A DNA stretch of 64,000 nt from Blasia pusilla. Taxonomy: Eukaryota. The first letter of the stretch is position 1. The number at the start of each line of letters is the position of its first letter. The stretch spans positions 24,056,001 to 24,120,000 of the forward strand of contig CM114271.1 of assembly GCA_050084515.1 (NCBI GenBank), written 5' to 3'. Positions 41,800 through 64,000 of the stretch are shown piece after piece. The position numbers were made by a program, and so were the translations under genes. The notes under the pieces were generated by a model that saw nothing but the letters and a program-made list of their open reading frames with translations, had not been told where the DNA came from and ran no database searches.

Positions 41800-44700
41800 A
41801 GACTCAAGGGACAAAGATGTGCGTAGAACTCTTACTCATATTTGCTCCTTGCTACGACCTTGTTGTGATGGGAGATGGAATTCCTCTCATACAAGCCGTG
41901 TCCTCACTATTAGCTTTAGAAGCAATATTTGAACCTAAGCTCCCATCCAAGCATGATGGCTCTTCCACCTTCAAGACCTCTATCATCAAGGCCATGTTGA
42001 CGAGATGTTCGGAAGCTCTATTCTACTCCTCTAGTCTCTTGGATCTCCTTGGATGTGTAACAACTTCATCAGTTGTTGGTGGATCCTTACCATCCAAGAG
42101 CTGCTTTATCCACTTAGGGTATGACGACCGTAGTGGAAGAGCAAGTTGCTCTTTGTAATCATCACCAAATTCTTCTTCTTGATGATCTGGTGTAAAAATT
42201 TGTGGTGTGCTCTTGTGGGTTATCTCTTCGTTTGATGATAATATGGACGGACCACTGATATCCGCCACTTGACGAGGTTGTTCCTGGAACATTACATCAC
42301 GACTCACAAGCATCTTCTTTTCCTCAAGACACCAAAGGCGATAAGCTTTAGACTCATCACTGTATCCCATAAAGATGCACTTCATGCTCTTGGACTCCAG
42401 CTTGGTCCTAGATGCTTCAGGAATATGTACAAAACACTCACTACCAAAAGTCCTGAAATGTTGGACTAATGGTACCTTACCTGAGTATGATTGATGAGGA
42501 ATCATGCCTTGCACTGACTTGGTAGCACTTCTATTTAGAATGTATACGGCGTGATAATGACTTCAACCCAAAATCCATCATCAAACCTTTTGCTTTCATC
42601 ATACATCTTGCCATCTCCACCATTATGACGGTTTGACGCTCAACAACTCCATTTTGTTGTGGTGTATGTGCCGTGGTTAACTGTCGCTTGATTCCATGCT
42701 CCCCCAAATATTTGTTGAATTCTGTTGATAAGAATTCTCCTCCTCGATCGGTGCAAAGCTTTTGTACCTTCTTTCCTATCTCATTCTCAACCAGCTTGTC
42801 CCATACTTTAAATTTTCCAAAATCACTTGCCTTATCACGAAGGAAATACACCCACATCTTCCTACTATAATCATCGACAACTAAAAAGAAGTAGGAAGAA
42901 CCACCTAATGCCACTGTTCTCATTTTACCATAGAGGTCAGCATGTATTAACTCTAGAGGAGCCTTTGCCCTATTGCTGGACTCTTGTGGAAATGGTTGTC
43001 AGTGTTGCTTGCCCATCATACAAGCTTCACAAGTATCCGACACTCCATAAATTGTTGGTAAATCAGCAACAATGTCAGATTTCTGCATCTGACTTAGTAA
43101 GGGAAAGCTTAGGTGACCAAATCTTTCATGCCACAACTTACTGCTACTTAGATATGTACCTACACTTGTCGTGAAAGCATACAGCTCGTAGATATTTCCA
43201 CGTCGTATACCTTCATCCACTACTTTCCCATTGGCATCCTCAATGACAACTCCAGTTTTCTTGAAACGAACCTCTAGGTCATGATCACATAATACTGCCA
43301 CTGAAATCAAATTTCGCTTCAACTCTGGTACGTACAGTACATCAGTTAACTTCTTTTCATCTCCTTTTTGTGAGACTAAAGAAATTGTGCCTTTCCCTTC
43401 TATAGGGCACTTTGCATTATTCCCAACAGTAACAACGATGGGCTCTTGTAGAGGCTGTAAGGAGCTATACCAATCCTTATGATTGGTCATATGCTTAGAT
43501 GCTCCACTATCGAGCACCCATGCATCTTCACTCTTTGACTTAGTGGAATGTTTTGCCTGTGTGCAAAACTCTTCTATTGCTACCCAAGCATCTACTTCAT
43601 GTTCTTCTAGTTCTACAGAATTTCCACACTCCTTCTTAGGTCTTAAACAACCGTTCTTCTCATCCTGACTCCTCTTTCTACAATCTTTGATAAGATGACC
43701 TAGCTTACCACAATAAAAGCATTTGAAGGCTTTTCTTGGAAATTTCTTCTTGACATTTGAATTGTAATCCTGATTTCTACCTCTCTGTACGTTGGCAGTT
43801 AATGCTGCATCACTTCCCTCTCTTGCTTTGAAGCGCATTTCCTCTTCTATCAACATTGCACTAAATTGTTCAAAAGTAAGTGGCGTGGGTCTTACTTGAG
43901 TATTCAGTGCAGTGACCAAACTGTCATACCTTGGAGGCAAAATCCTTATGCACCGACGTGCCAAATCTTCGCTTGACTTTGAAATTCCTACGGACGCCAT
44001 CTCATCTTGAAGATTCTTGATCCTTGTCAAAAATTGCTCCGCGCTTTCTCCTTCTGAAAATTTCTCGGACGTAAGCTGATTCTCCAGATTCTGAATTCGA
44101 GTCTCATTCCTCGTTTCATAATGATTCTTCAAAATGTTCCACGCCTCAGCAGTAGTGGTTGTATGTTGAATGAGAGTCATGACATAATCAGTTATATTTG
44201 TGACAATCGCATATAGAGCATCAGCACTTATGCGTCTCCATGCCAACAATACAACATGATCAATATCCCCAGATGAAGATGAACATGCAGAACTCAAACT
44301 AGCTTGTGGATTTGAATCGACCCTTGTGGCCGTTTCCCAAATCTCAAATGATTCGAGGACAGTATAGTTAGACCCATTTTGAACTTCCACAACGTATAGT
44401 TAGACCCATCTAACTTCCCTTCACCCAGCGGAGGAGGGCGAGCACGAACTGACGAAGAAGTAGCCATCTCTCAAGATTTTGTGCAAACACACTAGATCGC
44501 CATATACAAAATACTGGAAAACCTACTGCTCTGATACCATGTGAGAAAACATAAAGTGACGAAATCATTGAAATCTTTGCAAAACTTAGAGATACAAAGT
44601 AGCCTAGTCTGTTCGTGCGCTCACAGAAGAGCTTCGATGGAACCTGAATTGGAAGATAACTCGACATACTAGAATGCGCTACCGCTGCGGCTCGACTATT

Positions 44701-45974: not shown

Positions 45975-46814
45975 TCACAAGGAGGTAAAATCAGTTGTAT
46001 ATGTATGCAATTGTAATGTATATGATGTGATTTGCCCAAATAAACAAAAATTTGTAGGCTGCAATGAACCAATGATGCGCAAGTGCTCTTTGGTTTTAAC
46101 TCTTGACAACGTAACATACACTAGATTTGGTGCAAAAGCAACTTTTATCACAAGAAGGCATTTCCCTGATACAGTTAGACCTTGGCTCTTATGGCCAGTT
46201 AATGCATAACCCAAGATAAGTGGAAAAGGACTCTTATGGTACTTTTTCTTGACCATGCTTAAGCGTCACAAAGTTGGTGTGACTTATCTTAATTACTTTA
46301 TAATTTGAATGTAACATAACCGTTATATTGGCAAGTTCAGAATCCTTGTAACCACAATCAATAATTTCCGATGCACCATTTGCAGCTTGAATTTGGTCTA
46401 TATTTGAAGTGAGTAAAACTGTCCAGCCAATTGCAAGGAACTGAAGCTGATGGAAATTTGGCTTAGATATCCAATCATGGAATTGCGCATCAAGAGGAGT
46501 GTCAATAGAGATATGGACAATAAATATGTCATATGAACCATATAACCTATGAGGTGCAAAAACATTATAAATTTGGACATCAGCACAATGTGAACATTTG
46601 ATTATGATATCTTCTTATATAAAGTCTATACCAACATCTTCCTCAACAAAACACTTCTCAAGACATGTGTCTATTTGCTGCTATGTAGGTCTTGTTAGTA
46701 TAAGTTGCAACAAAAACGTGAGAAAATCATGGTCCTCATCATGCCTCATGGGTGTATGTAATTCATACTTAGAATGTTTCTAAAGAAGGGATGTGGCACA
46801 CTAGACACATTGAT
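45975..46814 (-). mobile_element. Helitron Rep/Pif1 helicase pseudogene, C-terminal part
   Basis: ELHTPMRHDED (motif IV-like), NGASE, PFPLILGYALTGHKSQGLTV (motif V) and VYVTLSRVKT (motif VI). Confidence 0.88.
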
Positions 46815-47379
46815 GGGGGCTGGTATTTTGGCAGGAGAGAGTAAGAGAGGAGAGGAAGAGAGGAAGAGAGGAGAGTCTCTCTTCAAAAAAAAGGGCCAAA
46901 TCCGCCTCCTCTCTTCAAAACTTTTTGACATATTTGAAACTTTTTGTTTGCTTTCAAATTCAGGAAATCTTTAGAAGAGAATATTTAATGGTCCACATTT
47001 GGCCCTAAAAAAACCTCCTCTTTCATGGGGGCAAGAAAAAAGGAGACATCATAAGACCACTACAAACATTTTTCCATCACTCTCCATGTGAGCCTAAGTT
47101 TCTTAACATTCCCTGTCTCGATAAAAAAAAAAGCAGTGCCCTTGGTATTTTTGTTGGAGGACCACTCGGATGCCAACCTCTCTTTTTGCAGGGATTGTTG
47201 CCTGCATCATGGCCTCCCCTAAATTGCCCCATAACCAACTTTCTGTTGGTTATGAATGGTGTCTACTCAAGACCAACTTTGTGAAATGTGAACACATCAG
47301 ATCCTAAGGCTGAGAAACCGAGAAGCTGCACCCCTCCCAACCCGTAAGAAAGCTCACCATAAGAAAGGAAAGATTTTTA

Positions 47380-48536
47380 GAAGTGATTTTCTTCCACCAC
47401 GCACTCCACGAGGATGTAACGGGTTGGGAATCCGAAATGGCAATCCGGCGGGTAGTAGGAATCATGCACATCTTAGACAAGAAAAGAAGCCTACAAGCTG
47501 GTTTGACGAATGTAGGGAACGAGCAAAAGTTAAGAAGCCCGCCACTATGTGTCGGTTGGTCTCACAGGAAAGAGTCCGATCACTCAGCGATCAACCTGCC
47601 GAACCGGCAACTTGCTTGGAAATGGTTAAAAAGTTGCAGTGGGAAAAAAGCAAAAAAGTTGCAACCCGTCGGAATCATACGGGTTGCAGAATTGTAATTC
47701 TGAGTAGCTAAAAGAACACAATCCACAAGTCCAAAAAAATATTCCAACAAACTTTTACAAACACCATTATGGGTTGAAAAAATCTCGTCCTTTATTACCT
47801 CCGAAGGAACCTTGGAAATGTACATTTGACCCAGTCTATGATTTCTTCAGCCTCGTCATTTATAAATTTACTCCTAACTCTCCTCGGTGACAGTACCAAA
47901 GGAAAGTCTTGGGATACAAGTGGCTCCTCTGGCCGATTGTAGACGGGGATTGAAAATGTTGGCGAATTTGAGAGTCTTGGCCCCCCCTAGGTACACCATA
48001 ACGGTCCCATGTAACCTGATTTGAGTCCCACCGCCTTCCTCGGCAGTATACCTTGTACACTCTGCAATGTGACACCCATCCAATATCAATATGTGCTCCG
48101 TCCCCGGTAATACCATTATGGCAATCGCACAGGTAGTAGGAATCCAACACGTCTGAGAGAAGAAAAGAAGCAAACGTCTGCCTTTACAAGTTGAGGGGAA
48201 GGTGCCAAGGGAAGAAGCCCACCAGACTGCCTCTTAAGTTGGACCAACAGGGAAAGAGTCCGATCAGGCAACCTTTCGGAATCCGACTGGTTGCCAAGAA
48301 GTGGTAAAAAGGTGCAGTGGTCAAAAAGTGAAAAGTTGCAAGCAAGAGAAATCCGACGGGTTGCAAAATAGAAGTCTGCGGAGTACATAGACGATCACAT
48401 TCGAAAAGACAAAAAATGTTCAGCAAACTTTTACAAGCACTACCATCGTTCGAAAAAAATCTTACGCTTTATATCATCCGAAAAAGCTCTGAATCAGACA
48501 TTTGATCTATTCTATGAAATCTTTTGCCTCATCATC
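47380..48536. repeat. Diverged tandem duplication (~680-bp period) in the MULE left arm
   Basis: 47568-47860 aligns with 48251-48536 (ggaaagagtccgatca...aagttgcaa...caaacttttacaa.cac...tctatga..tctt..gcctc.tcat). 47437-47490 aligns with 48118-48171. Confidence 0.75.
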
Positions 48537-49182
48537 AAAAAATCCCTACTCCAAATGCTACAGTCAAGATGGGTCGTTGAGTTCTTTGAACTCACTCGTC
48601 ATTGTCCGAGAGCTCTTGCAAAATTACTTTCGGCCTTGCCCTCCCGATTGTCGAAATTGTTGGAAGTGACGATGGAGTCACTACCAAGGGTGGATCTGGA
48701 ACCGGAGCTCTCGGCTTCGGTGGAGACTTGTACGCCCCAACGAGCCTTTCGTATTCTGCCTTTTCCTCCTTGCAAAGGTCAAACAGTTCCTGCCTTCCCT
48801 CGAGGCAGAGAATGTTCCTGCCACTCTGCTAGGCACCTTTGATACTTGCCCCTGAAAGTCCCACTAAGTCGAACACCAAGTCACCCGGCCTTGAGCAGAG
48901 CTCGATGAGCGTTTGCATCAGGGCTGGCAACTTTTCCCTTCCTCCCAGAAGTGGGGTACTGTCTTACATGTAAATTCTTGGGGGGGAATTGTACAAACTA
49001 TCTAAGCTGTACCCATCTGAGCATGGATCCACAGGATCCTGGATCTTGAACACCTGGAAATTGTGCTCGGGCCGAACGAAGCAGTACACGTAGGAGTGGT
49101 CCATCTGTAAATAAGCACGTTGGAAACAATGTCAGCAACTAAAGAAGTCGGCTTGAGAACATTTTCAATTACTAACTTTGGA

Positions 49183-49435
49183 TCAACCTGTTGGAGTCCG
49201 ACGGGTTTTTTTGTCCCGGACCAACCCGTCGGGCTCCGTTATTTTTGTCCGTGAGCCTAGAGCAGCCCATGCTCGCCTGAGAGCAACCCGTCGCTATCAG
49301 ATGGGTTGCAGCTTTCCGGAAACACAGGGAAAAACCAAAAGCAACTGCAACCCGTCGGAACCCGACGGGTTGCAAGTACACCACGGTTTTCCCTACACTA
49401 AGCCAGCAACCCGTCGCCTTCCAACAAGTTGCTCA
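49183..49435. repeat. Cluster of the ~27-bp palindrome in intron 3 of the cargo gene
   Basis: For example tgcaacccgtcggaacccgacgggttgca at 49346-49374; about five degenerate copies. Confidence 0.85.
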
Positions 49436-51584
49436 CGGAAAAAAAAAAATGGAGATTGACACTCATTATACTCACTCAATGGAGATAAACACTCATTATA
49501 CACATCATTAAAATATATTTGAGATTATAGTACAGGAATTGAGCCTTACCCGAATCTGACTCGTCGCGGATCGGAGTGGGTACTCGTTTTTTATGATCCA
49601 CGATTGCGCCGTCCTCCACTTTAGCGACCTCTTGACGCACTAGAGGTTGAAGAGCTCGTCCTCGCTCCCTCCAGTCAACACCAAGAAGCAGCCCCTGTCA
49701 CTCAGATAGGCGTCTGCAAAGGAGAACAATAGCGCTATCTGGTCATAAGAGAGCGGCACATTCCACTCAGGTACCTCGTCCGATGGATTCTCGCCCCAAA
49801 GTCGCAACCCCGAGGGCAGATCAGTGATCAAGAGATCCACCGCAACCTCTTCGACCACTCCATTCACCGTCCAGGCAGCATGCCTGTTTTGTTGGAGCTT
49901 CCGTCCCAGCGTTGTCAATTTATCGATGGCTGGTGTCGACGCTTGAGAACTGAACCTCTTCAGCTCATCGAGTAAAGGAGTGAACTGAAGGAGGACGCTT
50001 GTCCGGGTTGTTGTTTGTCTGTGTCTTCCCAAGGTTGATGGACTGTATTCTCCTTGGGACAACCCTGGCACCTCTCGCTTCCGCTTCTCCCGAGTCAGGA
50101 CGGCTTGTCGGGGTCTCTATGACCTCAGACTCTGGTGGGGTTTTTTTCGCCGAGGACCTGGTCCGACCCCTCTCCCCCGCCGCCGGACAATTCCGCCTCT
50201 GGCCTTGAATCTTCAGCCTCTCTTTGGGAAGACTCGGCCTCTGAATTTTTCCCTCCCCTCGCCTTGCCTTTGAGATCCACTGTGGATTTGTCTTTGGCTG
50301 TGCGGACCTTGGAAGCCAACTCAGCTGTCTCGTGGGCTTGCTCTTCTGCATCTCCTTCGAAGAAGTCTTCAGGCTACACGAAATTGGGGATGTCGTCTTA
50401 TCTTGAGGCCACTGCATCATGAAGCACTCGTAAATCCTTATCAGTGATGTCTTCAGGGTTGTTGAAGTCGAGCCAAATGGAGCAATTCTCCACCTCCCAA
50501 TCGGACATGTGGTGCCCCATCTCCATGTCGTACATGGAGAATGTCTCTGCATCCGGCGGCGAAGCCCACAATTTCAAGGCTGCCAGTAATTTTCCCCACG
50601 TACCTGCATTCTTACACTGGACGAGGTACCTGAAGACCATCCGTTGGGCAGCTTTTAGTCAAACAGAATTGGCCGTCTGCTCTTGTAGATCTCGCTTCTT
50701 CTTCGCTTGATCCCGTTTGTTCCCCTCTACTCCTTCGTCAAGCTATGCATGAGGAAGGACGCAAAACTTGAACATTGTCTTGAATCGTGGGTTTTTGGTT
50801 GGCTTGTCCCGATTTTCGTCGAGCCAAACCTCGAAATCTCCAGAACTTTCAAGGTTTGCTTCATCCGGGATGGGCTCTAATCTTTTGAGCTCCCCTTGCA
50901 GACCGTCCAGCACGGACTTCCCGATAACCCGCAACGCATCCCATAACGACCATTCGCGTAGCCAATGGGAGATCACTGGATCGGACACACCGGAGGATGG
51001 TGTGCCGCCCTCTTCTGGGCCTCTGTGCCCTCGACACTGATTTTCATCAGTCGGATCCTCCTAAACTCGCTTATGCCGGACAACGCAAACCGATGCACGC
51101 GATCCAGGGACACTCTCTCCCCAATCCAACCATGCGGATCTTCATCCCTTTTCCACTGGGGCTTGATAATCGCCTTCAGCTCCTTGTAGAACCCCGGACC
51201 AAGTTCGGGGTTGAGAATGCTGATGTATCGCTGCATCTTGCTCGCCGTGTATTTCGTTGCTGTAGATACTGCAGCTTGGATGAATTTCGCGCGCTCAGAC
51301 GCAGATACCTTCTCCCTCCACTCCAGCTCCTGTGCAGCGCTCTTTTTCGCGGCATGTATCTTCGACCAGCAAAGGATGGTTACGGCTGCATCTTGGGAAA
51401 TAAACTTATTTGCCCAAGTTTTCTTTTTAATCTGAGCACCCTTTGCAAGCATTTGATTGACAAGGGCATTGCCCAAGAACCCCCTGTACTCTCCCGGGTG
51501 CGTCGTAAGCACCTTCCTCACCCGATCGCAGTCCTGGATCCAGTGGTGGGTGACATTCCCCTCCGATACAATCCTGCACATCCA

Positions 51585-52315
51585 AACTCAACCCGTCAGG
51601 AAATTACATGGGTTCTTGCAACTCGTCGGACTCCGACGGGTCGTCACAGCTCAAGGTCGTATTCTAGGAACGAGCTAAATGATGCAACCCATCGGAGTCC
51701 GGCGGATTGCATTCAGATTTGCTAATGCCTGGTTTCAACCCGTCGGACTCCGACGGGTTGTGGAACTGAACATACTAACGTGAACATAGCAACCCGTCGG
51801 AGTCATACAGGTTGCGCAATTGAATGGAAACTTGCAATTTGACGCAAAATTTGGGGAACCAACTTCCGAACGCAACCCGTCGGACTCCGACGAGTTCATT
51901 TTGGCCAAAAAAAGTTTCGAGGCAAGCAACCCGTCGGACTCTGACGGGTTGCTTTGGGCAAAAAACATACTAAACCTGCGGTCAGTCGAACAACTCGTCG
52001 GAGTCTGACGAGTTGCATTCTTCAAAAAACATCTTGACAAGGCGGCGAGTCGAGCAACCCGTCGGACTCCGACGGGTTGCTTTGGGCCAAAAACTAATTA
52101 AATCTGTGGTCAATCGAACAACTCGTCGGAGTCCGACGAGTTGCATTCTTAAAAAAACATCCGAAAAAGCGTCGAGTCGAGCAACCCATTGGAGTCCGAC
52201 GAGTTGCTTTCGGCAAAACAAAACCTAACCCATTCATCAATCGAGCAAGTCGTCGGAGTCCGACGAGTTGCGTAAGTGTTAAAGTATCCCAACAACCGTC
52301 CCGACGAGTTGCGTA
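51585..52315. repeat. Phased array of the palindrome GCAACCCGTCGGACTCCGACGGGTTGC in intron 2 of the cargo gene
   Basis: Copies at ~51618, 51684, 51736, 51789, 51872, 51926, 51991, 52054 (perfect), 52118, 52181, 52245; period of 63-65 bp in the right half. Confidence 0.92.
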
Positions 52316-53954
52316 AGTGTTAAAGATACTCACGTGTTCATGGCATGCATTGCCATCTCCACCGTCGCCATGTGATGAGGGAATGGGTGAAGGACCACTG
52401 CCTTCACGCTAAAATGTGCCTCCAATGAGTTGGGCCGCACCTCCACAAACTTGGTCCACGCCATGAACCTATGATTTCCATCCCAGATGAAGAAATGCAG
52501 ATTCCTCATCCAGCTGAATTCCGTGCCCTCTACTTGCCTTCTGAAATCCCGGTCTCGCATCCTCCAGAATGTGTCGAGCTTTTCCAAGTCCTCCTCTGTA
52601 ACCAGAGCTTGGGTTCCATGCTCGTCGTAAGGCTGAACATAGAAGGGAGGAAAGCTGTCGACGTAGGATGCTGTCACCGCCGATTGTTTAAGCTTCGCGA
52701 TGTCCTCGTCGGACTGAATTTTGCGGACGTATTCTATTGTCCGCAATCGGCAGAGTGGAATCCTCGAGGTGTTGTGGCCCTCCATGAGTGCCATCTGCTT
52801 AACCACCTGTCAGAACCGGGAGAAGATCAATAAGCTACACTAAATGTCACATAATTTATTGGGAATACACTGAATTCCCAATAAATTATGTGAATTGCAA
52901 TTCACATAATTCAAAAAACCCAGATCCTCTCTTACCCGCTCGAAAATGGGCTCGGTTTCTTGACCAACCAACTTGTCTAAGACAGAAGCTGGCAAATCGA
53001 CTGGGAACTCGTCGATCCGATAGAGGTCGATATCCTCCGCCGGGCTTGGAGACGAGAATGACCGCTCTCCGGCTTCTTCGGCCATGTCCACCATCTCCAC
53101 ACTAGTGGTCCTCATGACCTCGTCGTCATCGATTTAAACTTCTGGCGTTTCCACTATGTTGATTGTGTCCCCGGACTTCATGGGGGACATTTCCCGCATC
53201 TCAACACTTTTGGTTGGAAAGGCAGGGCTATCATCAATGGCTATCGGTTTTTCCCTCCTCGCTTTAGCCAATTCTGCTCTCCTCACCGACGCGTCCAGAT
53301 GCTTCTTTTCTCTCTTTTCGTCGGCGATCCTTTTCTTCAAGGCCTGCGACGTCTCAGCCTCTGCGTTCTGTTTATCGAGCACGTCTTGAACACGTCTCGC
53401 AAGAAGCACTTGGTTGTGCATCTCCGCTTCCCTTTCCCGCTCCTCGATTTCCTGCTGCCTAATTTCATTTGCCAAACGAGGCCCAAGAGATGCTGACGCA
53501 GGAGTCCTAATGGACTTCGGAGTGAAGCTCTGAGACTTGTTGGCTTGTTATTTTTTCCTCGTCATTTTTTCCGAAAATGCCTCCACCTATGTCCACGACG
53601 AATCCCTTGATTAGTCGCCTTGCTGATGTCGAGATGTGTAGCTCGAATCGCCTTGATGGGTAGCTTGAATTGTCTCGAGATCGTTCAGTCGAACCGTCTC
53701 GCTGTCGTTCGGTCGAACTGTCTCGCTCTCGTTACCTCCAATCAACTCGCGATGTGTCGCCGTGTGAAACGCCCCTTCGTATCTGATCACCTGCTGCGCG
53801 GGAGAGTGAGGAATGAAGATCGCGAAATTAGAAACAAAAAATGAGCGATTTTTGCCCTATTTATACTTTTCTAGCCGTTGGGCTGACCGTTGGATCCCGT
53901 CGTCCGTTCGACGGCGACGTGCCGGAGGTTACGGAAGTCCGGAGGTGAAAAATG

Positions 53955-54555
53955 GCAACCCGTCGGAGTCCGACAGGTTGCGCGCCTCCGCCATCCTAGG
54001 TACGTCGCCACGTGCGCGAGCAACCCGTCGGAGACCGACGGGTTGAGCGCCTCCGTCGTCTTCGGAAAAGAACGCGAGGTACCCGCGCAACCCGTCGGAG
54101 ACCGACATGTTGCGCGCCTCCACCGTGTTTGGGACGGGAACGAGACGTACCCAGGCAATCCGTCGGAGACCGTTGGGCTGCACGCTTCCCTCGTCAAGGG
54201 TTAAGAACGTGGGCTTCCCGTGCAAGTCGTCGGAGTTCGGCTGGCTGCACACTTCATGTAAGCACCACAAGGCGAGGCCCTTGCGCAACCCGTTGGAGGA
54301 TGACGGGTTGCACGCCTCGCCGTCTTTGGGCAAATAGGTGAGGCACCCACGGAACTCATCGGGAACAGACGGTTTGCACGCCTCGGGCATCTTCAGGCAA
54401 GAAGGAGCGGTATCCGAGAAACTCGTCGGAGAGCGACAGGTTCCTCGTTGTGACAATGTTTGGCAGAAGCGTGCAACCCGTCCGAAGCCGACGGGTTGCA
54501 GGCTTTGGTTAGCTTCGGGTAATTTTTGAGTTACTAGGACTCTGACGGGTTCCAA
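53955..54555. repeat. Phased palindrome array in the divergent promoter region between the cargo gene and the transposase
   Basis: Copies at ~53956, 54020, 54087, 54155, 54222, 54285, 54352, 54419, 54473, separated by ~30-bp diverged spacers. Confidence 0.9.
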
Positions 54556-54767
54556 GTGTGATTTGCAACCCTCTGCTTCCCAAATCCGGTAACATACTGC
54601 AACAGGATTGAATGTGTTACAGAATTGGATCCATTGTGTCAGACAATGTCACCCACCGAATTCATCTTGTAAGTAAAAATCTGTCAGGAGTATCTGTTTT
54701 CCTATTCACTATAAATTAAAAATTCTCATTCTCATTCTCAGTCTCCTCCCGTTGAAAAATTCTTGGA

Positions 54768-57700
54768 ATGGATAATTATGTGAAGCTCACTTGTGGCAAT
54801 CATGTGGCGGCCCTTCCTCAATCAGAAATCATTCGACCCCAAGCTCGTGAGTCTTTCATAGCAGTGGATGAAAATTTTCTGTCTGTTCGATTTCTTCTCC
54901 AAATTGGAACCATCTTTGTATCCAAAGATGTTAGGGTGGACGGTACGGAAGACATAATAGGTGAGACGGTCCAGCCAGTGACCTCAGACCGTAAAGTATG
55001 GAATCTCCTACCTCTAGCAAATGGTCAATACAGAGTTAACGGCTTGCCCCTGAATTTTTTTGTTTCCCAAGTAGACGGTCTAGAATTTCCTAGTGCTCCG
55101 AGCTCTACGTTTGCAACTCCAAGCTCTGCAGATCCGGCTTCGACTCCAACTTCGCACACTCGTAACAATGTTGTTCTTCTTGAAGAGATTCCGGATGTTA
55201 TCAACCTCAGTGGATCTGTCGGACACCAATCGGGCCCTCTACCCCCAACTCATTCCTCTAGGGAGTATCAGGAAATAGTTTGCTTTCGTCTCTCACCTTG
55301 AAAATGTTCAAGCACATTCTTGTCGACGAGCTGCCGCCCACGTACGATGGTAATTGCATTTTTGAGTTGCCTCCACTTGCTGCTCCTGCTCAAAAGAAGG
55401 ATGGAGGACGCCTCAAGGGTATGGACAAAAAGTCTAATTGTCATCGATGGTGCAGGCTTCAAGAGACTAGTGCTTCCATTCCATATGGTCCTTGGATTGT
55501 CTCCCGCCGCCAATGCGTGGGAGCCTTGGAGTGTAGAAGTCCAGCATGCCCGTATCCAGAGCGCAACGGGCGAGTCAATATGTCGCAATTCCCTCCCAAG
55601 AATGCAGAAAGTCCATACGAGGTCGGTGCCACCATACCGCCGGGAGGCCATTGATGTCCTCATTGTCAGGCATCGCCCTTCTGCGTTGGAGCGTGTCTTG
55701 CATACATATTTTTCATTGTCCACGACTTGGGCTCCACGTCAGAGTATACAAGGCTGGCAGTTCATGTTGGCTCCCACACTCATCCTGTGATCGATGCAAT
55801 TCAAAGACACATCAAGGAGGATGTGGCGAAGAAAGTAGCCGAGGTCTACAGAAACTCTCCGGGTTCAAAGCCCGGAGTGATCAAGCTCACAACGGCATCA
55901 CAAATTTATGAACAATTGCTTGGAATCCCGGGATAGGGCGAGATCACGGTGGTTGAGGAGAAACAACTCTGGGAAAATCTCCCATTTCTCGCTGATCCTG
56001 AATGCTTCCGGAATTTGCTACGTCAAATACGAGTTCAGGATGGAAAGACGGCCGAAATGGATGCCATCGCCAGAATCAAGGCCAACTCCAGATTTCCATT
56101 CATTCAGAGATGGCAGTTCATGGGCCAAGGATGCGAGGGATCCAGGGCCTATGTCTTCAAAATGTCAACCACAGGTCCGTCGAGTGGCCTCCATCTTATA
56201 GATCGAATGAGGGAAGGGGAAGATCTTTACGGGAGCTGAGTAAGCTTTGATATTTGCTACAGAGTCCTGAACGGATGGTTGACGATGGGTGCTCACGTTT
56301 ATGACCATGTGGAGAAGGGACTCAAAACTATATTTTTCTGTGAAGTAAAGGCAAAAGACGTTGGTAGTTTGAAGATGTGTTGGTTACTCTTATTGGAGGT
56401 GGTGAAGGAAAACAAAAGGCCACCTCCGGAAATTTATGGGTTCATGGCAGACAATGCACAACCTGGGTGGATTGCTATCCGGGAAGTGTTCTGGGGTGGA
56501 GGGGTTCAACCGGAGAGGGAAAGGTCGGATGCTTTCCATTGGAAACAGTCTGTGACCCGGTACACCAAATCTTGCATCAAGGAGAATAAGAGGACAGAGC
56601 ATCTCACTCTACTCCAACGCTGCAAGGACAACAAAACCTTGAAGCAGGCCATGGAATGCCAGGAAGAACTTCATGGGTGGTGGAGGAAGCATGCGATTGA
56701 GGGGAAGTACAAAGAGTTGTGCTCTTGGTTGAGTTGGTGGACTGTACGTATGAGACAATGGGGAAACTTCATGCGGCATGTGAGTTCACTATTTTGTCTT
56801 GTCAAGCTCACGCTGAGAATTATTTGTAAAGTTGTAGCTCAGGGTGAGAAGCGTGGGAACTATATGGATTTCAAACCCAAGAAACCAAGCAAGTTGTCGA
56901 CGGGTTGCCCGAGTGTGCAACCCGACGGAAACCGACGGGTTTCCCGAGTGTGCAATCCGACAGAAACCGACGGGTTGCCCGAGTGTGCAACCCGACAGAA
57001 ACCGACGGGTTGTTCGAGGGTGCAACCCGACGGAAACTGACGGGTTGCATCCATAATTTTGGTGCAACCCGAGTGTGCAACCCGTCGGGACCCGACGGGT
57101 CACAGAGTCGTTCATGGGATGCCTCGGCCTTGCAACCCATCGGGTTCTGACGGGTTGCAGTAGGTGGGTTTAAGGTTACAACATGTCGAGACCCGACGGG
57201 TCGCAGAGTCGTTCATGGGATGCCTCGGGCCTGCAATCCGTCTGGTTCCGACAGGTCGCTTATTTCTTTGACTCCTGAGTTATTTTCGTTCCCTTCTAAC
57301 ATTGCCGTCGTTGCAGGGATTGAACGTTCATGAAAATGCCCTCTGCCCCAACATAAGTGGAGCAGAAAGTGTTTATTCCTCCTGGAGGTTCTCACAAGCA
57401 TGCCAACGAATTTCACTTGTGGAGGCATGCCAACAAGACCAGGCAAGAGCAATGCTACAGTCTGCAGCATCCCATATCTTCCTCACAAAAGGCATAACAA
57501 AAGGAAAGGGGTCGTCGATCTATGAGCTCTATGTCGAGGCATTTGTGAGATCTCAGTGATGAAAAAATGTATGTGGAAGCCTTCAACCGGTCGCGAGCTG
57601 AAACTCCACTCGAGCAAGACGTACACATTGGTGGGGATATTCGTAGGCGGGTTTCAAGGCGTCCCATACTGAGATGGTGGTAGAGCGATCGAGCAAGACT

Positions 57701-58818
57701 CGTGGAGACCATATAAGTATCTTGACTTCAGGCAGGTGAAGAGGCAGCATCGAGGAACGAATCCGGTGATTGATTTGGATGAGGAAATTACGCCGCCCTG
57801 GTATTCGGGGACCCCGGACTTGTCCCAAATCTGTGATGGAGTTACTTCTCCAAAATCAGTGAATGTTTTATTTCAAAAGCTCTCCGTTGTTGGAAGTTCG
57901 CAACATCCTGTCACTAGGGTGGTTCAACAATATGGGATTTCGGTAATGGAGGTGGATTGCAACCTAAAACGGTGGCATATATCTCGGAGCAACCTAGGAC
58001 GTGGACCCACCTGCAGGGTAGGATCTGATGGCATTAGGAGGGCATGCGGCACTTTCCTAAATAAGAACTGTACAAGGACTAGACGACCACTGCCTGGGTT
58101 TTGAGGACTCAAAACCTTTGATCGCTTCACGAGGACCGGGATCAATTAAAGTACTTCTTCTGCCCAAATGAATCTTGCACTTTCCGGAAGTCTTATCCGG
58201 CTGCCATTGGAGCTCCCGGGAATACCCCCACGATTTGGCCCATCGCCGCAGTCTGAATCGCACTCAAGGCAAGTGGACAATCTTACAAGTGTCGGTTTCA
58301 CACTCGTAGACGGGGGAAGTTTGGAGCATGTTCGCATTACAGAGACCTTCCCATTTCATATTCAACCCAAGATTGATGTCAACATGTACCTGGAGAAGGT
58401 GGATGATCTCAATCCATTATTTCTGTTTGAGTCTAGAAATGGGGTGAAGAGAAACAGAATCTGCAGGCCAACGGTGGAGAGAGCAAAGTGAATTGCATAA
58501 GCTCGGGAGGCAAAAATGGAGATCATCGCCACGAAAGATGTCTTGAGTGGCAATGGAATAGGAAGGATGTATTGGGTCAGGAACAACACTGTAAATTCAA
58601 GTATCACAGGGGTGTATGTGGTGCACATCTGTTGCTTTCCCACACATTCATGTGATGACTTTGTCCAAAGAGAGACAAGTGGCAAAAGGTATTTCCCTTG
58701 TAAGCACATGTACTATGTGTTGCTGGTAGTTTTAAGAGAGTCGGAGGTAGGAGTAGGAATCCACCAACCAATTCTGTCCCTCAAAGAAGTTCGAAGTATT
58801 TTAAACAAACCACTTTGA
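54768..58818 (+). pseudogene. MULE-type DDE transposase with an N-terminal Cys/His-rich (GCM/WRKY-like) region and a C-terminal SWIM zinc finger; intron 56780-57316
   Basis: CVGALECRSPACPY..CPHC..VHVGSHTHPV; first Asp VSFD; second Asp FMADNAQ; DAFHW at the CxxH position; Glu region NISGAESVYSSW after the intron; SWIM-like HSCDDF..PCKHMYYVL. Stops at 55652, 55934, 56237 and frameshifts. Confidence 0.85.
56890..57255. repeat. 36-bp tandem repeat carrying the same palindrome inside the transposase intron
   Basis: Unit cgagtgtgcaacccgacggaaaccgacgggttgcc about four times, followed by further degenerate copies. Confidence 0.9.
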
Positions 58819-59215
58819 GGATGCAAAATGAGGTTTTAGATTGTACTTTTATTTTTTTCTCAACCTTCACTTTGAGCTTGAACTCTATTCAGCCCTGGGC
58901 AAATGACAGATTTTTTCCATACCTTGGATGGAAAAAGTGATTGGTTCCACACTTATGATTCCACTGATTTTTCAGTTTTCTAAATTTTGTGCAATTTGCA
59001 ACTCGTCGGACTCAGAGGGGTTGCCAAAATATGGAAGAGGAAAAAAAAATTGTGGGACTGCTTAATATATGAACAAAAAAGTGCAAAAAAAATCAAACAA
59101 AAATTTTCCTCGCTTCAACCCAACGAAAACTCTCTTAAAAAATATATATCTATTTCAGTTGAAGGTAGTTTCCTCTCTCCTCTCTTCCTCTCTTCCTCTC
59201 CTCTTACCGCACCTC

Positions 59216-60610
59216 CACATTGGTGTAATGTTATGGCGAGAAATGGATGGCAATTGGCAAAGATCACCTAGTAGTACAACAAGCTTCATTGAGGATGGGT
59301 TCAAATCTGAAGATGGACTAACTCAATGCAATCTCATCAAGTAAGTAAGTGGTCTAAGCATGGAGCACTCGTCTACAACTATTACCTTGGCATGTTTTAG
59401 GCGATTATACTGGTCAGACGTAGTGTGCATTGATGAAAGATCTCCCTTTATAGGTATGGCAAATGCGGAATGGACTGTTGTTGCTGATTCATGCAGTCTC
59501 ACAACAGCAATCCCGGTTGTTGCTATTAGCAATGTAGGAATGCAATTGTACGGAATACCAATACTTTTGCATAAAATGGATAAAGAACATTTTCCCGCAA
59601 CCAGGTGGTCCAGTGATCATTACTAAGCCAAGGCGCAATGTTCTGAATTCTTGATACAGAGCTGCTTGTTCAATGTTGAGAACATGAAAAAGTAAGGCAC
59701 TATCACCATCTACATAAGTTTGCTCATAGTTAGAAGTGGGCGGTTGTTGCTCAATAACAGGTGAGTTCGCACATACGTTGAATGAGAGTTGTGGATCAAT
59801 AAGGTCCATAACTTTTGTTGCAATCTCACTTATGTGAACCTTGCTCCATAGGTTTGCTACAGTATGCCGCTGTATTTCCTCTACAACAAAGCATGGGTTC
59901 TAAAATATGTTTCTATAAATACACTCATTGAGAAAGGTCCACTCGGGTGATACAATAGTGAGAATTTATGATTCTGATATGAATGTGATGTTTTGCAGTA
60001 CTGTATTATAAAAGAACTTATTTGATTGATGAAAGGGATGAAACTCACTAAAACGGACCAGGCGGTCAGTCTTATAGATCATGTTGCTAATTGAATCAAA
60101 TCCTATCAAGTTGGCAAGATTTTGTTTGCCTGTTCGCAGCACTTCATATATAGTCTTGAATTGAATAAAAGTTAAATCAGATAGATATATTGGGCGATAA
60201 CTATACAAAATTGTTGGATGGACGTATAGTGTAGTGGCATCTTTTTAAAACGTAGTTCGTCTACGAGGAGGACTTGAATCAATATATTCAACACTTTGGG
60301 ACCTATGGATGATCGGAATTTGGAGTGCCGTTATTGTTGCCTCAGTTACAGAGACCGATTTATTTAGCACCAAACCAGAGACAAGCCGGAGCTTTATCTC
60401 ATCCAATCCCTCAAGTCCTAGACACGTTGCACATTCAGTAGTGATGTTGAGGAAACCATGTGGCTCTGATTTTAGTGAGTATTTCAACAAGTAAAATGAC
60501 CATTGCACATCGGTGACACGTTGTAGATTCATATGAGCTCCCCAAAGCAGTAGTATAACTAGATGATAGGGAATAACATTCCAGTGCTCATGACCACGCC
60601 TATAGTATTT
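59216..60610 (-). mobile_element. Helitron Rep/helicase pseudogene, Rep C-terminus to helicase motif III
   Basis: VIPYHLVILLLWGAHMNLQRV..YLLKYSLKSEP (Rep tyrosine motif), ITGPPGCGK (Walker A), ATTGIAV, TTVHSAFAIP, IVVDECSM (Walker B) and GDLCQLPSI. Cut at 60610 by an LTR. Confidence 0.9.
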
Positions 60611-61370
60611 TGTGGTGTGCATACACATTGCTACACAACATACATCATTATCACCGAACACACACACAAACGCGCACGATCTCATGCTAACTCATGGCAT
60701 CCAAACAACGAGACAAGAAGTACCAAAATATCTCCAATAAAATAAGATCCAATCTCTCTCACAACACCATAGTTCTCACATGTCTCTCTCAATATCAAAC
60801 CAAACCCACTCTCCTAATGAGAGGCTTGGGTTACACACACAAGGCAAGCAAGACCATAGCTCCGCCGCCTCATGCCAAGAGGTTCAACAAAGAGAGAATG
60901 AGCTCTCAAACTCTCTCTCTCCTTAAGGTATACCCTTCCCCTCTCCAAAGCTCCCTCCATGGTAACCTATGCCCCCAAGTCACCTCCTTGGCTCTTAACA
61001 TGATGTAGGAGGTCAATAACCACTTCCCAAAAATAAGAAGTCGATCATATATTCAAAATGGTATTTACCTAAAATAGCAAGTTCCTCAATATGGCTCCAA
61101 ATGAGCCGAAACAAAGGGGAAACCTACTCTCTCGAGTTTTGCGGGGCCTCAACAGGTCATCCTTGACCTACTGAGCCCGTCCTCCACTACTCATGAATGT
61201 GCTTTACTAGATCTCACCGATCTATCCTAAAAGATATGACAATTATCGTGCGTATACACATCGCTACACAACATACATCGCTATCACCAAACACACACAC
61301 AAACACACACGATCCCATGCTAACTCATGGAAACCAAACAACGAGACAAGAAGTACCAAAATATCTCCAA
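60611..61370 (-). mobile_element. Complete 631-bp LTR (60611-61241, TG...CA) followed by a partial tandem copy (61244-61370)
   Basis: TG start and CA end; homologous to 18010-18523 and to the split LTR at 20881-25995. 61244-61370 repeats the first ~130 bp. Confidence 0.82.
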
Positions 61371-61551: not shown

Positions 61552-64000
61552 CTATGTACATCTGGGACACATCCATCGTCCTTGAGGAATCCTAGTGAGA
61601 GGAGGCGTCAAATATGCCATATGCCATCCTCTCGAACACCCATCACAGACTAGCATAGTGGCTACACCATGGGCAAAACCACACAACATACACCACAAGC
61701 CTCTAGTACCTATTGCTAAGCTCGGATCAACTGTACCGTAAATGTTCGGAAGATGACATGGCGCACAGTTACGCATATGGTCCTTCCAAACCATACCATT
61801 GCGTCCTTCCAATAAGAGAACATCAGACGGCAAAACCTCACGCACTCTCAAGATGGTGTGTAATGCAGTCACATCCAACGTCGTGGGTGTTGTTTGCTAC
61901 AAGTAGACATAGTCTCCCTGATGAAACCTCCGGATAGTAGGTTAATAACCACCTCCCCGAATAGTGACATACCTTAACGTATCTCGACGTTGCGCAATCT
62001 CCAAGTTCTCAAACGCCATGGGCATCACTCTCCAAAATAACTCAACCCTCAGAGAACATGTTCGCATCCAAACATCAAGGTCATCAAGGTTCAACACCTC
62101 ACCAACATCTCAACGAATGGCCGTAAGTAAATCTGGCTCTCAACCATAAAGCAACAAGTACGGTGAGAAAGACGCTAAGGATGCCTGCTTGGTGAATCTG
62201 TTTCCCATCGCCAACCATGGCAACTAAAGGTCCCAATCTCCTGGGTGACCTCTCTACAAGCCATACTTGCGTAATCCTCTCTTCACCGTCTGCACAACTT
62301 GCTCCGCTAGTCCATCCACCTCAGGATGATCTCGCGAAGTAGTACGATGGTCGATCAATGCCTGATCATGCAAGGCGTGAAACTCCCCGTGGAACCCTGT
62401 ACCCTGGTCTGTCAACACCTCAGCATGTGCGTCATAGTAGCTCAACACTCGATCTAGGAAGTAGCTCAACACACGTGTCCATCTCAAGTGAGGAAGCCCA
62501 ACGCTATTGTCCTTGTAAACGAAGAAGCACTAAGACTCCCTCACTTGCTTTGTCATGCAATGCATCCAACTCTATCCACTTCGAGAAGTGCTCGACCATC
62601 ACCAACACATAACGACTATGATGCTCCGTCAAAGGCAAAGGTCCTACAAAATCCAAACTCCATCTATAACCTAAACCCATGATCTGAAGTGGATGCAACA
62701 TTGGAGTCGCAGCATTGAACCATGCTCGGACTCAATCACACACCATGCATCTGGCAACAAACTATTGAACGTCAGTCTCCATGCCTCACCACCAATATTG
62801 AATCTGGAGTAAGTTGTACGTCCGCTTCACTCCAAAATGACCCAACTCCTCATGGACATGACGCACCAAATGTGCACTCTACGAAGGATGAAGCACTACA
62901 TGCACTCTACCATTCTCCCACACTCGCAGCACATATGTGCCATCCCACCGGAACCGTCTGGCTTGTTGTAGGATCCGATCCCGCTCTCTAGCATCCACTA
63001 TGCTCGCAACGCTACGAGTACGCAAGTACTCCAAGACCACTCTATCGTCGTGAATATCTTGGCCACCTTTCGTCTCCTTACCGGCCTCTGGATCTAAGGA
63101 CTCTTCATCAGACCTCGCCATCGAAATGTCAACAATCTGGCTCTCCATAGCCAACAAGCCCAAATAGGCTGACGGTTGTCATTCTGGCACCAACTCCTCA
63201 TCACTCTCACCATGCCAACGAGCTCCAGTCGGATCTCGCTAACTTGGGCATGGGTTACGCTCAAACCATTTGTATCTTGGTTGAGCATCCCAAGTCTATG
63301 CACCACATGGAGGTCATACTCCTGCAGTAAAAGAGCCCATCTTGCAAGCTTCCCTATAAGCTTTTCGGACTCCATCGACCACTTAAGTGGCTGATGATTA
63401 GTAATGATGGTAAAGGGATTGCCGAATAGATAACATCTAAGATGTACGATAATCCACATTGCAAAAAAGCACTCACCCTCATACGATCTATACTTCACCT
63501 CTGCAACGTTGTTCGAGCGACTAGCAAAAGCCAACATGAACTCTCTACCATCATCATCATGTTGGGTGAGGACGGCTCCAAGCCCCAACATGCTCCAATC
63601 GGTATGCAATTAGAAATGACGCCCCTTGATCAGTCTCCTCAATATGGGCGCGGACGTCAATTTGTCCTTGAGCATATGAAATGCTCTCTCTTGCTCATAT
63701 CCCCAGTGCCATTCCTGATCCACCTTGGTCATCAAGGTTAGCGGCTTCGCAATCGAACTGAAATCCTTAACGTACCATCAATAGAAGTTTGCCAATCCCA
63801 TGAATGCACGAACTCGACTCACATCTGTAGGGCGTGGAATGCGTGAATAGCCTCGACCTTCATCTGCTGCATATCAATACCACCAGGATATATCGTATGA
63901 CCCAAGTACTCAATGTGGTCGTAGAAGAACTTGCACTTGCCTTTATGTAGCTTCAGCCCATATAACTACAATCGTCGAAACACCCCCTCTAGATGTCGCT
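61552..64000 (-). mobile_element. Ty3/gypsy pol pseudogene (RT-RNaseH-integrase) ending in a PHD finger; continues beyond the window
   Basis: RT LKLHKGKCKFF..EYLGH; RNaseH HTDWS..LGAVLTQ..YEGEC..TNHQPLKW; integrase HEELGHFG..CMVC, WSLDFVGP, LTDQG, DGLAE; C-terminal CMLC..MLVCDGCSRGWHMAYLTPPLTRIPQGRWMCPRC. Confidence 0.92.

Follow-up and report, generated by a model that had tools for sequence, protein, structure and literature searches.

The stretch of Blasia pusilla DNA analysed here, referred to as the window, comprises 64,000 nucleotides of contig CM114271.1 (assembly GCA_050084515.1, positions 24,056,001 to 24,120,000 of the forward strand; all positions below are counted from its first letter). 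It is eukaryotic and repeat-rich, with many short broken frames, a GC content of 37-52% and no long open reading frames (ORFs) of the bacterial type. On its minus strand lies a methyltransferase-like domain divided over two exons which, judging by its liverwort relatives, is the C-terminus of a gene of about 1,200 amino acids extending from about 52770 to 48592. This locus is a dead copy, best annotated as a repeat-borne pseudogene, and the domain belongs to a high-copy, transcribed gene family that probably serves giant DNA transposons as an accessory gene. An earlier reading of the same DNA, the original prediction, had described the domain only; most of that description stands, and the domain can now be placed at the tail of the longer gene, within a transposon-like block.

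The catalytic half of the domain is encoded by a first exon, here exon A, and the target-recognition and S-adenosylmethionine (SAM)-binding half by a second, exon B (Table 1). The peptides from which the domain had been predicted are present on the minus strand as quoted: VDLLITDLPSG comes from 49640-50116, whose translation ends in AWTVNGVVEEVAVDLLITDLPSGLRLWGENPSDEVPEWNVPLSYDQIALLFSFADAYLSDRGCFLVLTGGSEDELFNL and a stop, and REKLPALMQTLIELCSRPGDLVFDLVGLSGASIKGA-stop-QSGRNILCLE comes from 48592-49131, which translates as ...MDHSYVYCFVRPEHNFQVFKIQDP...GGREKLPALMQTLIELCSRPGDLVFDLVGLSGASIKGA-stop-QSGRNILCLEGRQELFDL.... The SAM-binding half at 48592-49104 thus carries the in-frame stops attributed to it, and a further one was found at 49640-49642, at the end of the open part of exon A. 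The exon A frame crosses this TAG and continues to ATT CGG/GTAAGG, a donor that puts the exon end at 49550, while exon B starts at 49104, behind the acceptor TTTACAG/ATG. Since the 445-nt GT..AG intron is in phase 0 on both sides, the two exons join in frame over it, in agreement with the splice that had been proposed. Across this junction, GS and HNF stand 56 residues apart, against 58 in the Riccia sorocarpa protein P0005, which supports the chosen exon A frame and junction. A frameshift in exon A, with a switch to the frame at 49476-49697, was rejected, as the unshifted frame, with its single stop, preserves the Riccia spacing and meets the donor in phase.

The rest of the gene was traced with two Riccia sorocarpa proteins, P0022 (1,244 amino acids) and P0037, which align by tblastn colinearly with the minus strand from 52770 to 48667. 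They show an intact protein of about 1,200 amino acids with an N-terminal domain bearing a DGNHR motif, a long middle region and the C-terminal methyltransferase-like domain. A single P0037 high-scoring segment pair spans 51000-50413 with two further in-frame stops, and the frame changes near 51000, where there is no space for an intron. In run X20, the sequence of four RNA reads goes from 51573 exactly into 52334-52363, so that the intron between these positions is spliced in transcripts. For the domain-internal intron the RNA evidence of splicing is weaker: in three RNA runs the depth is 0 over 49149-49469 and the flanking bins are covered, and among the reads listed for these runs none is split across 49105-49549. 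Upstream of the DGNHR domain, the minus strand has charged low-complexity frames at 53134-53547 and 52810-53133 that share its frame but are cut off from it by stops. They possibly represent the N-terminal region of this gene; tblastn did not align residues 1-151 of the Riccia proteins to them.

An exhaustive phmmer search of 1.84 billion representative sequences returned seven hits at E <=0.001. Six of them are proteins without a characterised function, from Riccia sorocarpa, Ceratodon purpureus and contigs of the European Nucleotide Archive (ENA), and the remaining one is a bacterial multi-domain methylase (5.2e-4); no close canonical enzyme was among them. A search with a family profile gave 86 proteins, the query P0005 and 85 others, again from Riccia, Ceratodon and ENA contigs, so that the named nearest relatives of the family are bryophytes, one moss and one liverwort. 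About 50 of the profile hits are Riccia gene models, mostly fragmentary and of very uneven lengths. Several Riccia members have been automatically named "Trimethylguanosine synthase" in UniRef, one "Profilin" and others "DNA methylase N-4/N-6 domain-containing"; only the DNA methylase name is supported by the fold and profile results given below. Word-based searches with the protein P0001 and with a 204-residue middle frame found no match, and a metagenome scan for other loci gave 39 pattern matches, of which tblastn confirmed none.

The family is present in many copies, and some of them are expressed. In run X1, 14,565 DNA contig pieces match 3.2 kb of the locus at an identity of at least 92%. 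Besides the runs used here, small shares turned up in air-metagenome runs and in runs of two other organisms, B and C. The three RNA runs, which carry the same species label, contributed 27, 58 and 51 reads at 92-99% identity, with the first mates mostly on the plus strand, and no RNA read was at least 99% identical to the window. These reads show that paralogues of the window copy are transcribed and spliced.

The original prediction had offered two explanations for the unusual features of the domain, decay of this copy or a family-wide, catalytically altered pseudo-methyltransferase used for DNA binding or base flipping; each accounts for a different feature, the second only as far as the motif goes, its pseudo-enzyme part being one of two possibilities taken up below. 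The stops belong to decay. Three of them break the domain (49640-49642, 48964-48966 and 48829-48831), and the gene copy as a whole has at least five, together with one frame change. At 48966, all 13 paralogue RNA reads (2/2, 6/6 and 5/5 in the three runs) have G, which gives CAA where the window has TAA, and at 48830 all 11 reads (1/1, 6/6 and 4/4) have C, which gives TGG where the window has TAG. DNA contigs of run X1 also mostly carry sense codons at both sites (depth 94.4 of 94.4 and 211.4 of 263.2). With sense codons in the paralogues, the two stops are explained as decay of this copy. Over 48400-51580, transitions (C>T, T>C, A>G and G>A) make up most of the differences between the window copy and its paralogues, those at both checked stops included; such a bias would fit the decay of a silenced repeat by deamination.

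The motif, in turn, belongs to the family. At motif IV, D-[LMIA]-P-[STE]-G is the spelling in each of the 36 family entries in which the region is present (DLPSG in 17, DLPTG in six, DAPEG, DMPSG and DMPTG in four each, DIPTG in one), and a Trp-Asn dipeptide follows within 25 residues in 35 of them, with Leu-Asn in the last. A [DSN]PP[YFWH] string occurs in none of the 94 stored family entries, and a check of the motif consensus, which the original prediction had called for, turned up no canonical DPPY or SPPY in any of the 36. With one spelling scheme common to the moss, liverwort and window members, the odd motif IV is family-wide. On the SAM side, the motif I region reads G-D/Q-x-V-x-D plus eight residues ending in G/S-A-S/T in most members, with the Asp and the last Gly nearly invariant. 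The commonest Riccia form, GGWGA, keeps the G-x-G, which is missing from the window copy (GLSGA), from Ceratodon (ANTGA) and from ENA members (ASTGA). At the motif II position, 35 of 38 distinct tails have Glu and two have Asp. The nearly invariant columns of the domain (N200, Q222, G232, V235, D237 and A248 in P0005 numbering) fall in helix X and motif I, and by this measure the SAM side is the most constrained part.

That the domain is of the DNA methyltransferase type is supported by profiles and by a structural model. The window copy matches Pfam PF01555 (N6_N4_Mtase) over the SAM-side half only, with E 8.5e-5 and 23.0 bits, where the gathering cut-off is 26.7; its relatives P0005 (24.5), P0012 (25.6) and P0022 (19.9) score below that value as well, and PF01555 is on record for eight of the 86 profile hits. 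Both halves match Riccia proteins by tblastn (50026-49664, E 5.7e-11; 49098-48712, E 6.3e-11), and the window domain matches M.RsrI at E 0.006. Against PDB sequences, the family profile found beta-class enzymes only (DpnA, 1.5e-6; CcrM, 0.006; TTHA0409; N4CMT), and hhalign aligned a phage DNA methylase with a probability of 95% and E 2e-8 over the SAM half only. Tblastn of P0022 against phage records gave E values of 0.2-0.9 only, all under annotated DNA methylases, and no match among these records for its N-terminal domain.

The fold was predicted with AlphaFold2 for Riccia P0005 (314 amino acids, the whole domain) from a family alignment of 38 rows, and the model has a predicted local distance difference test score (pLDDT) of 81.6 and a predicted template modelling score (pTM) of 0.82. 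Foldseek with this model retrieved CcrM first (3.6e-13), followed by M1.HpyAVI, M.BceJIV, M.RsrI, M.MboIIA, rotifer N4CMT, TTHA0409 and M.PvuII, and ranks 1-43 are DNA amino-methyltransferases, beta-class and Type III Mod-type enzymes. VIA-align over model residues 1-280 gave Z scores of 18.7-16.5 and root-mean-square deviations of 3.1-3.7 Å for CcrM, M1.HpyAVI, M.BceJIV, M.MboIIA, N4CMT, M.RsrI, M.PvuII and TTHA0409, whereas MTA1 and METTL3 reached Z scores of 11-12.7 only, clearly below the beta-class enzymes. In enzymes of the beta class, strand 4 is followed by DPPY. In the model, the strand at 63-69 (ADCLYLD) leads into an L-P-S-G loop, and both precede the helix at 218-228 and the strand at 234-237, which is the permuted order. 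The same order is read directly on the minus strand of the window, where DLPSG (49808-49822) comes before GDLVFDLVGLSGAS (48844-48885), and in all full relatives; it had been predicted correctly, as had the spellings DLPS and VGLSG. A circularly permuted beta-class fold, as found in DNA N6-adenine and N4-cytosine methyltransferases, is therefore supported for the domain by the model of a relative, and the Rossmann methyltransferase fold that had been set beforehand as a check is present in it.

With seven solved beta-class structures, CcrM, M1.HpyAVI (DpnA-like), M.BceJIV, M.MboIIA, M.RsrI, M.PvuII and rotifer N4CMT, the family shares the permuted order, in which motif IV stands ahead of X, I and II, and, by the P0005 model, the fold (Z 17-18.7 over 184-227 aligned residues), and the SAM-side sequence of the family resembles theirs. 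The family differs from them in an identity of only 11-17%, in the lack of DPPY or SPPY/SPPF, in having GG/GS-R-E/R-K where they have HPxxKP, and in that its domain is embedded in an intron-bearing eukaryotic gene of about 1,200 amino acids.

As for what such a domain does, the chances that it is an active enzyme with an altered target pocket seem about even on its conserved residues, which makes this likelier than a non-catalytic binder. Conservation extends to Asp, Pro and Gly in the loop, to Trp-Asn, and to the Asp of motif I and the Glu of motif II, and active Trm5 enzymes have NLPK or PTPK in place of NPPY, according to the sections of PMC5714064 that deal with them; conservation and precedent together argue against a dead site. 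A motif IV with one proline and without an aromatic residue would, for its part, argue against ordinary amino-methyltransferase chemistry. The family may instead, with a somewhat smaller probability, consist of pseudo-methyltransferases that keep the fold and perhaps SAM binding and transfer no methyl group, acting as a module for DNA binding or base flipping or as a partner, as METTL14 does for METTL3. In keeping with such a role, motif IV has lost its aromatic residue and first proline in 36 of 36 members, and the G-x-G of motif I lacks its first Gly in three subgroups, those of the window copy (LSG), Ceratodon (NTG) and ENA (STG); METTL14 representatives often have disrupted active-site motifs and are thought to be inactive (as stated in part of PMC4738411). 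However, the retention of the loop residues, Trp-Asn, Asp and Glu in moss and liverwort alike resembles the constraint on a working pocket, the Trm5 enzymes are active with comparable loops, and three-frame Pfam scans did not find a second methyltransferase-like frame in the block that could be the partner.

The gene lies in a block of 12.4 kb whose candidate ends are 30-nt perfect inverted repeats (Table 1). Within the block there is a 27-bp palindrome, GCAACCCGTCGG-N3-CCGACGGGTTGC, with 48 matches (one arm, at most one mismatch) where 0.42 are expected, all of them within 47662-59009. In 12 units both arms are within one mismatch, at a fixed offset of 14 nt, and units are spaced 54-68 nt or 35 nt apart. 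The arrays occupy two introns of the gene, the region downstream of it, the stretch that separates it from the opposite-strand frames (53.95-54.5 kb) and 56.9-57.26 kb. Also downstream of the gene, 47437-48800 contains a tandem duplication of about 680 bp (pairs 47437-47490/48118-48171 and 47735-47782/48411-48458, 75-81% identity), each duplicate of which carries one palindrome unit.

Table 1. Features of the Blasia pusilla locus on the minus and plus strands of the window.
Feature	Positions	Strand	Evidence or content
Left arm, 30-nt perfect inverted repeat, purine-rich; candidate block end	46846-46875	+	blastn and local alignment
Palindrome clusters	47.66-48.37, 49.18-49.45, 51.59-52.31, 53.95-54.50 and 56.90-57.26 kb; one unit 58993-59024		in introns or intergenic
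Exon B, target-recognition and SAM-binding half	48592-49104	-	translation, profile and tblastn matches
In-frame stops of exon B	TAA 48964-48966; TAG 48829-48831; terminal TGA 48592-48594	-	
Motif X/I, GGREK...GDLVFDLVGLSGAS; motif II Glu within LCLEG	exon B; motif I 48844-48885	-	
GT..AG intron, 445 nt, phase 0	49105-49549	-	sequence; four palindrome units between 49183 and 49445
Exon A, catalytic half of the methyltransferase-like domain	49550-50116	-	translation; tblastn matches of Riccia P0005/P0022 to 50026/50089-49664
Motif IV DLPSG, then EVPEWN	49808-49822	-	exon A translation
Match to P0022 residues 982-1125	49110-48667	-	tblastn
Match to P0022 residues 802-943	50089-49664	-	tblastn
Match to P0022 residues 527-606	50667-50413	-	tblastn
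Match to P0022 residues 497-531	51000-50896	-	tblastn
Match to P0022 residues 303-497	51566-50994	-	tblastn
Middle exons, colinear with P0022 and P0037 residues 303-660	50413-51573	-	tblastn segment pairs; paralogue RNA reads cover the region
GT..AG intron, 760 nt, between P0022 residues 301 and 303	51574-52333	-	filled by tandem palindrome array, period about 64 nt
Match to P0022 residues 152-301	52770-52333	-	tblastn
N-terminal conserved domain, IPLCRL...WDGNHR	52334-52770	-	35% identity to Riccia P0022 residues 152-301; tblastn E 4e-19
Opposite-strand open frames, longest 56240-57040 (266 aa)	54756-58818	+	ORF lists
Right arm, 30-nt perfect inverted repeat	59175-59204	-	blastn and local alignment

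From the frames on its two sides, the block appears to be an insertion into a Helitron-type helicase gene. A minus-strand frame on the right, which matches positions 53-157 of the 223 of the PIF1 profile PF05970 (E 2.4e-8), stops just outside the arm. The minus-strand sequences at 45975-46614 and 59323-60691 look like pieces of such a gene split by the block, the right one consisting of the PIF1-like helicase and of upstream frames that resemble a Rep domain. Farther out, frames of 466, 155 and 179 amino acids at 42023-44399 (minus strand), with strings like a CCHC zinc knuckle and an aspartic protease, look in an ORF reading like the gag-pol of a copia-type long terminal repeat (LTR) retrotransposon. 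Two further minus-strand regions were read from their ORFs in the same way: frames at 61552-61896 resemble a PHD-type zinc finger, and those at 62254-63609 the RNase H and integrase parts of an LTR retrotransposon. Within the block, three-frame Pfam scans of 47500-57399 (minus strand) and 54600-59300 (plus strand) found PF01555 only. A retroelement of the DIRS type was rejected, as these scans revealed neither a reverse transcriptase nor a recombinase. The opposite-strand frames at 54756-58818 are possibly a DDE transposase with a degenerate SWIM-like finger, an assumption based on motif patterns only.

In the reading that we consider probable, the N-terminal domain would bind the arrays of palindromes in the element that encodes it, the C-terminal domain would bind SAM and act on the DNA of that element, and the whole protein would be an accessory product of a giant DNA transposon. 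For the first of these steps, a ParB/Srx-like character of the N-terminal domain is a lead only. A search of an atlas by features placed it at scores of 0.92-0.96 to clusters that contain DUF3723 (31% of members), ParB_N (11%) and DUF6551 (98%, at rank 29). The window reads WDGNHR, and P0022 and P0037 read W[DE]GNH[RQ], so that a motif of the DG-x-HR type is present, which we take to be a mark of ParB/DndB-like domains.

Several points weigh against this reading. No ParB match for the N-terminal domain was found in Pfam, NCBIfam, PHROGs or PDB sequences, and its structural model, with a pLDDT of 44.6, is unusable. At the C-terminus, the window copy stays under the PF01555 cut-off, and the predicted fold is that of P0005, a relative about 30% identical to it. 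The inverted repeat consists of low-complexity, purine-rich sequence, no target-site duplication was recognised at the block ends, and the frame left of the block, which is like a helicase C-terminus (GYALTGHKSQGLTVS), has a weak match to UvrD_C_2 (E 0.038). The opposite-strand frames gave no transposase match in Pfam or PDB. Lastly, the suggested link between gene and palindromes draws on this one element and on the analogy with algal systems.

The lack of a matched transposase family and of a target-site duplication, together with the presence of gene models in two annotated genomes, could also be accounted for by a gene family of the host, such as one expanded in a particular lineage, of which this copy would be a dead duplicate that landed among repeats by accident, with the palindromes as a separate satellite. 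This seems improbable, since all 48 palindrome matches fall inside the block bounded by the inverted repeat, two introns of the gene included, copies are very numerous in the DNA of run X1, Riccia has about 50 mostly fragmentary models, and the right end of the block adjoins a PIF1 helicase frame cut at profile position 157 of 223. Less plausible still is that the odd motifs and the stops all reflect the decay of one ordinary DPPY/SPPY beta-class gene copy. Although three stops in the domain, and more stops and a frame change upstream, leave no doubt that this copy is broken, the idea is refuted for the motifs by their same spelling in all relatives that have the region, among them annotated proteins of two other species with open frames, and transcribed paralogues exist, and the exhaustive search brought up no close canonical enzyme.

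Accessory proteins of the proposed kind have been described from algal transposons. In Ectocarpus, the 21.5-kb element Sola1-1_Ec32 encodes, on the strand opposite its transposase, a protein of 1,104 amino acids with a ParB-like and an N4C/N6A methyltransferase domain, and its authors envisage a class of accessory proteins that would bind to the element encoding them and modify it (as described in parts of PMC12477816). The Blasia gene is like it in a protein of about 1,100-1,250 amino acids with an N-terminal domain and a C-terminal domain of the N4C/N6A type, in an element of more than 10 kb, in the opposite-strand frames and in its many copies. It is unlike it, in a comparison by description only, in that the N-terminal domain is only a candidate ParB and the opposite-strand frames only a candidate transposase, in its land-plant relatives and in its D-x-P-S/T/E-G loop.

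Another example is the giant Plavaka elements of red algae, in which PAG2 combines an N6-adenine methylase with SET, and PAG3 a ParB-like domain with a 2-oxoglutarate (2OG) oxygenase; tandem inverted-repeat arrays lie beside PAG3, and binding and modification of the own element are proposed by the authors (passages of 10.1101/2025.02.11.637652). Arrays of inverted repeats beside the gene are shared with PAG3, the Blasia N-terminus being only a candidate ParB-like domain. In contrast to PAG2 and PAG3, one protein here holds both the N-terminal and the methyltransferase-like domain, and arrays are also found within its introns. Judged by analogy, the family resembles the algal accessory proteins in overall logic, with a long two-ended protein, palindrome arrays, a large element and many copies, and differs from them in its bryophyte relatives, in the arrays within its own introns and in a catalytic loop re-spelled in every member.

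Prokaryote-type methylases occur on other eukaryotic elements and genes too. DIRS and LTR retrotransposons carry DAM domains, which are of another Pfam family. These elements, as far as the relevant part of the report goes (10.64898/2026.05.21.726589), are like the Blasia block in that a prokaryote-type adenine-methyltransferase domain is carried by a eukaryotic mobile element; unlike it, they travel with a reverse transcriptase or a tyrosine recombinase, neither of which the Pfam scans found in the block. Fusions of ParB-helix-turn-helix domains to Dam-type methylases have been noted in chlorophytes and chytrids (in a section of PMC4738411). Among bryophytes, MpDN4MT1a and MpDN4MT1b are two tandem host genes of Marchantia that are expressed in late spermiogenesis and group with the N4-cytosine methyltransferases of prokaryotes, according to portions of 10.1101/2021.02.12.428880. 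They share with the Blasia gene that a bryophyte gene is of prokaryotic methyltransferase type. As no Marchantia-labelled protein was among the seven hits of the exhaustive search or the 86 of the profile search, MpDN4MT1 and this family are not close. Full-text literature searches brought up no report of such a family from a bryophyte or other land plant, the supplements of the algal papers, which possibly list land-plant relatives, being outside their scope.

Transposons with their own DNA-modifying accessory proteins have been described only recently, in algae and fungi. For bryophytes, a bolder and rather unlikely proposal would be a lineage of giant transposons in which a ParB-like domain reads the 27-bp palindromes in the introns and promoter region of the element, and a re-tooled beta-class domain, with D-x-P-S/T-G and Trp-Asn, marks or shields the DNA of the element. 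If this were true, it would mean either a modified base so far undescribed in plants or binding that depends on SAM but transfers no methyl group, and the element could thereby escape silencing. A loop changed throughout the family with the SAM side kept offers a clean test case for methylation, and of which base, versus binding only. N4-cytosine methylation is known to be in use in Marchantia, and a second lineage of prokaryote type, unrelated to that one, therefore bears on how bryophytes have acquired and use DNA marks other than 5-methylcytosine.

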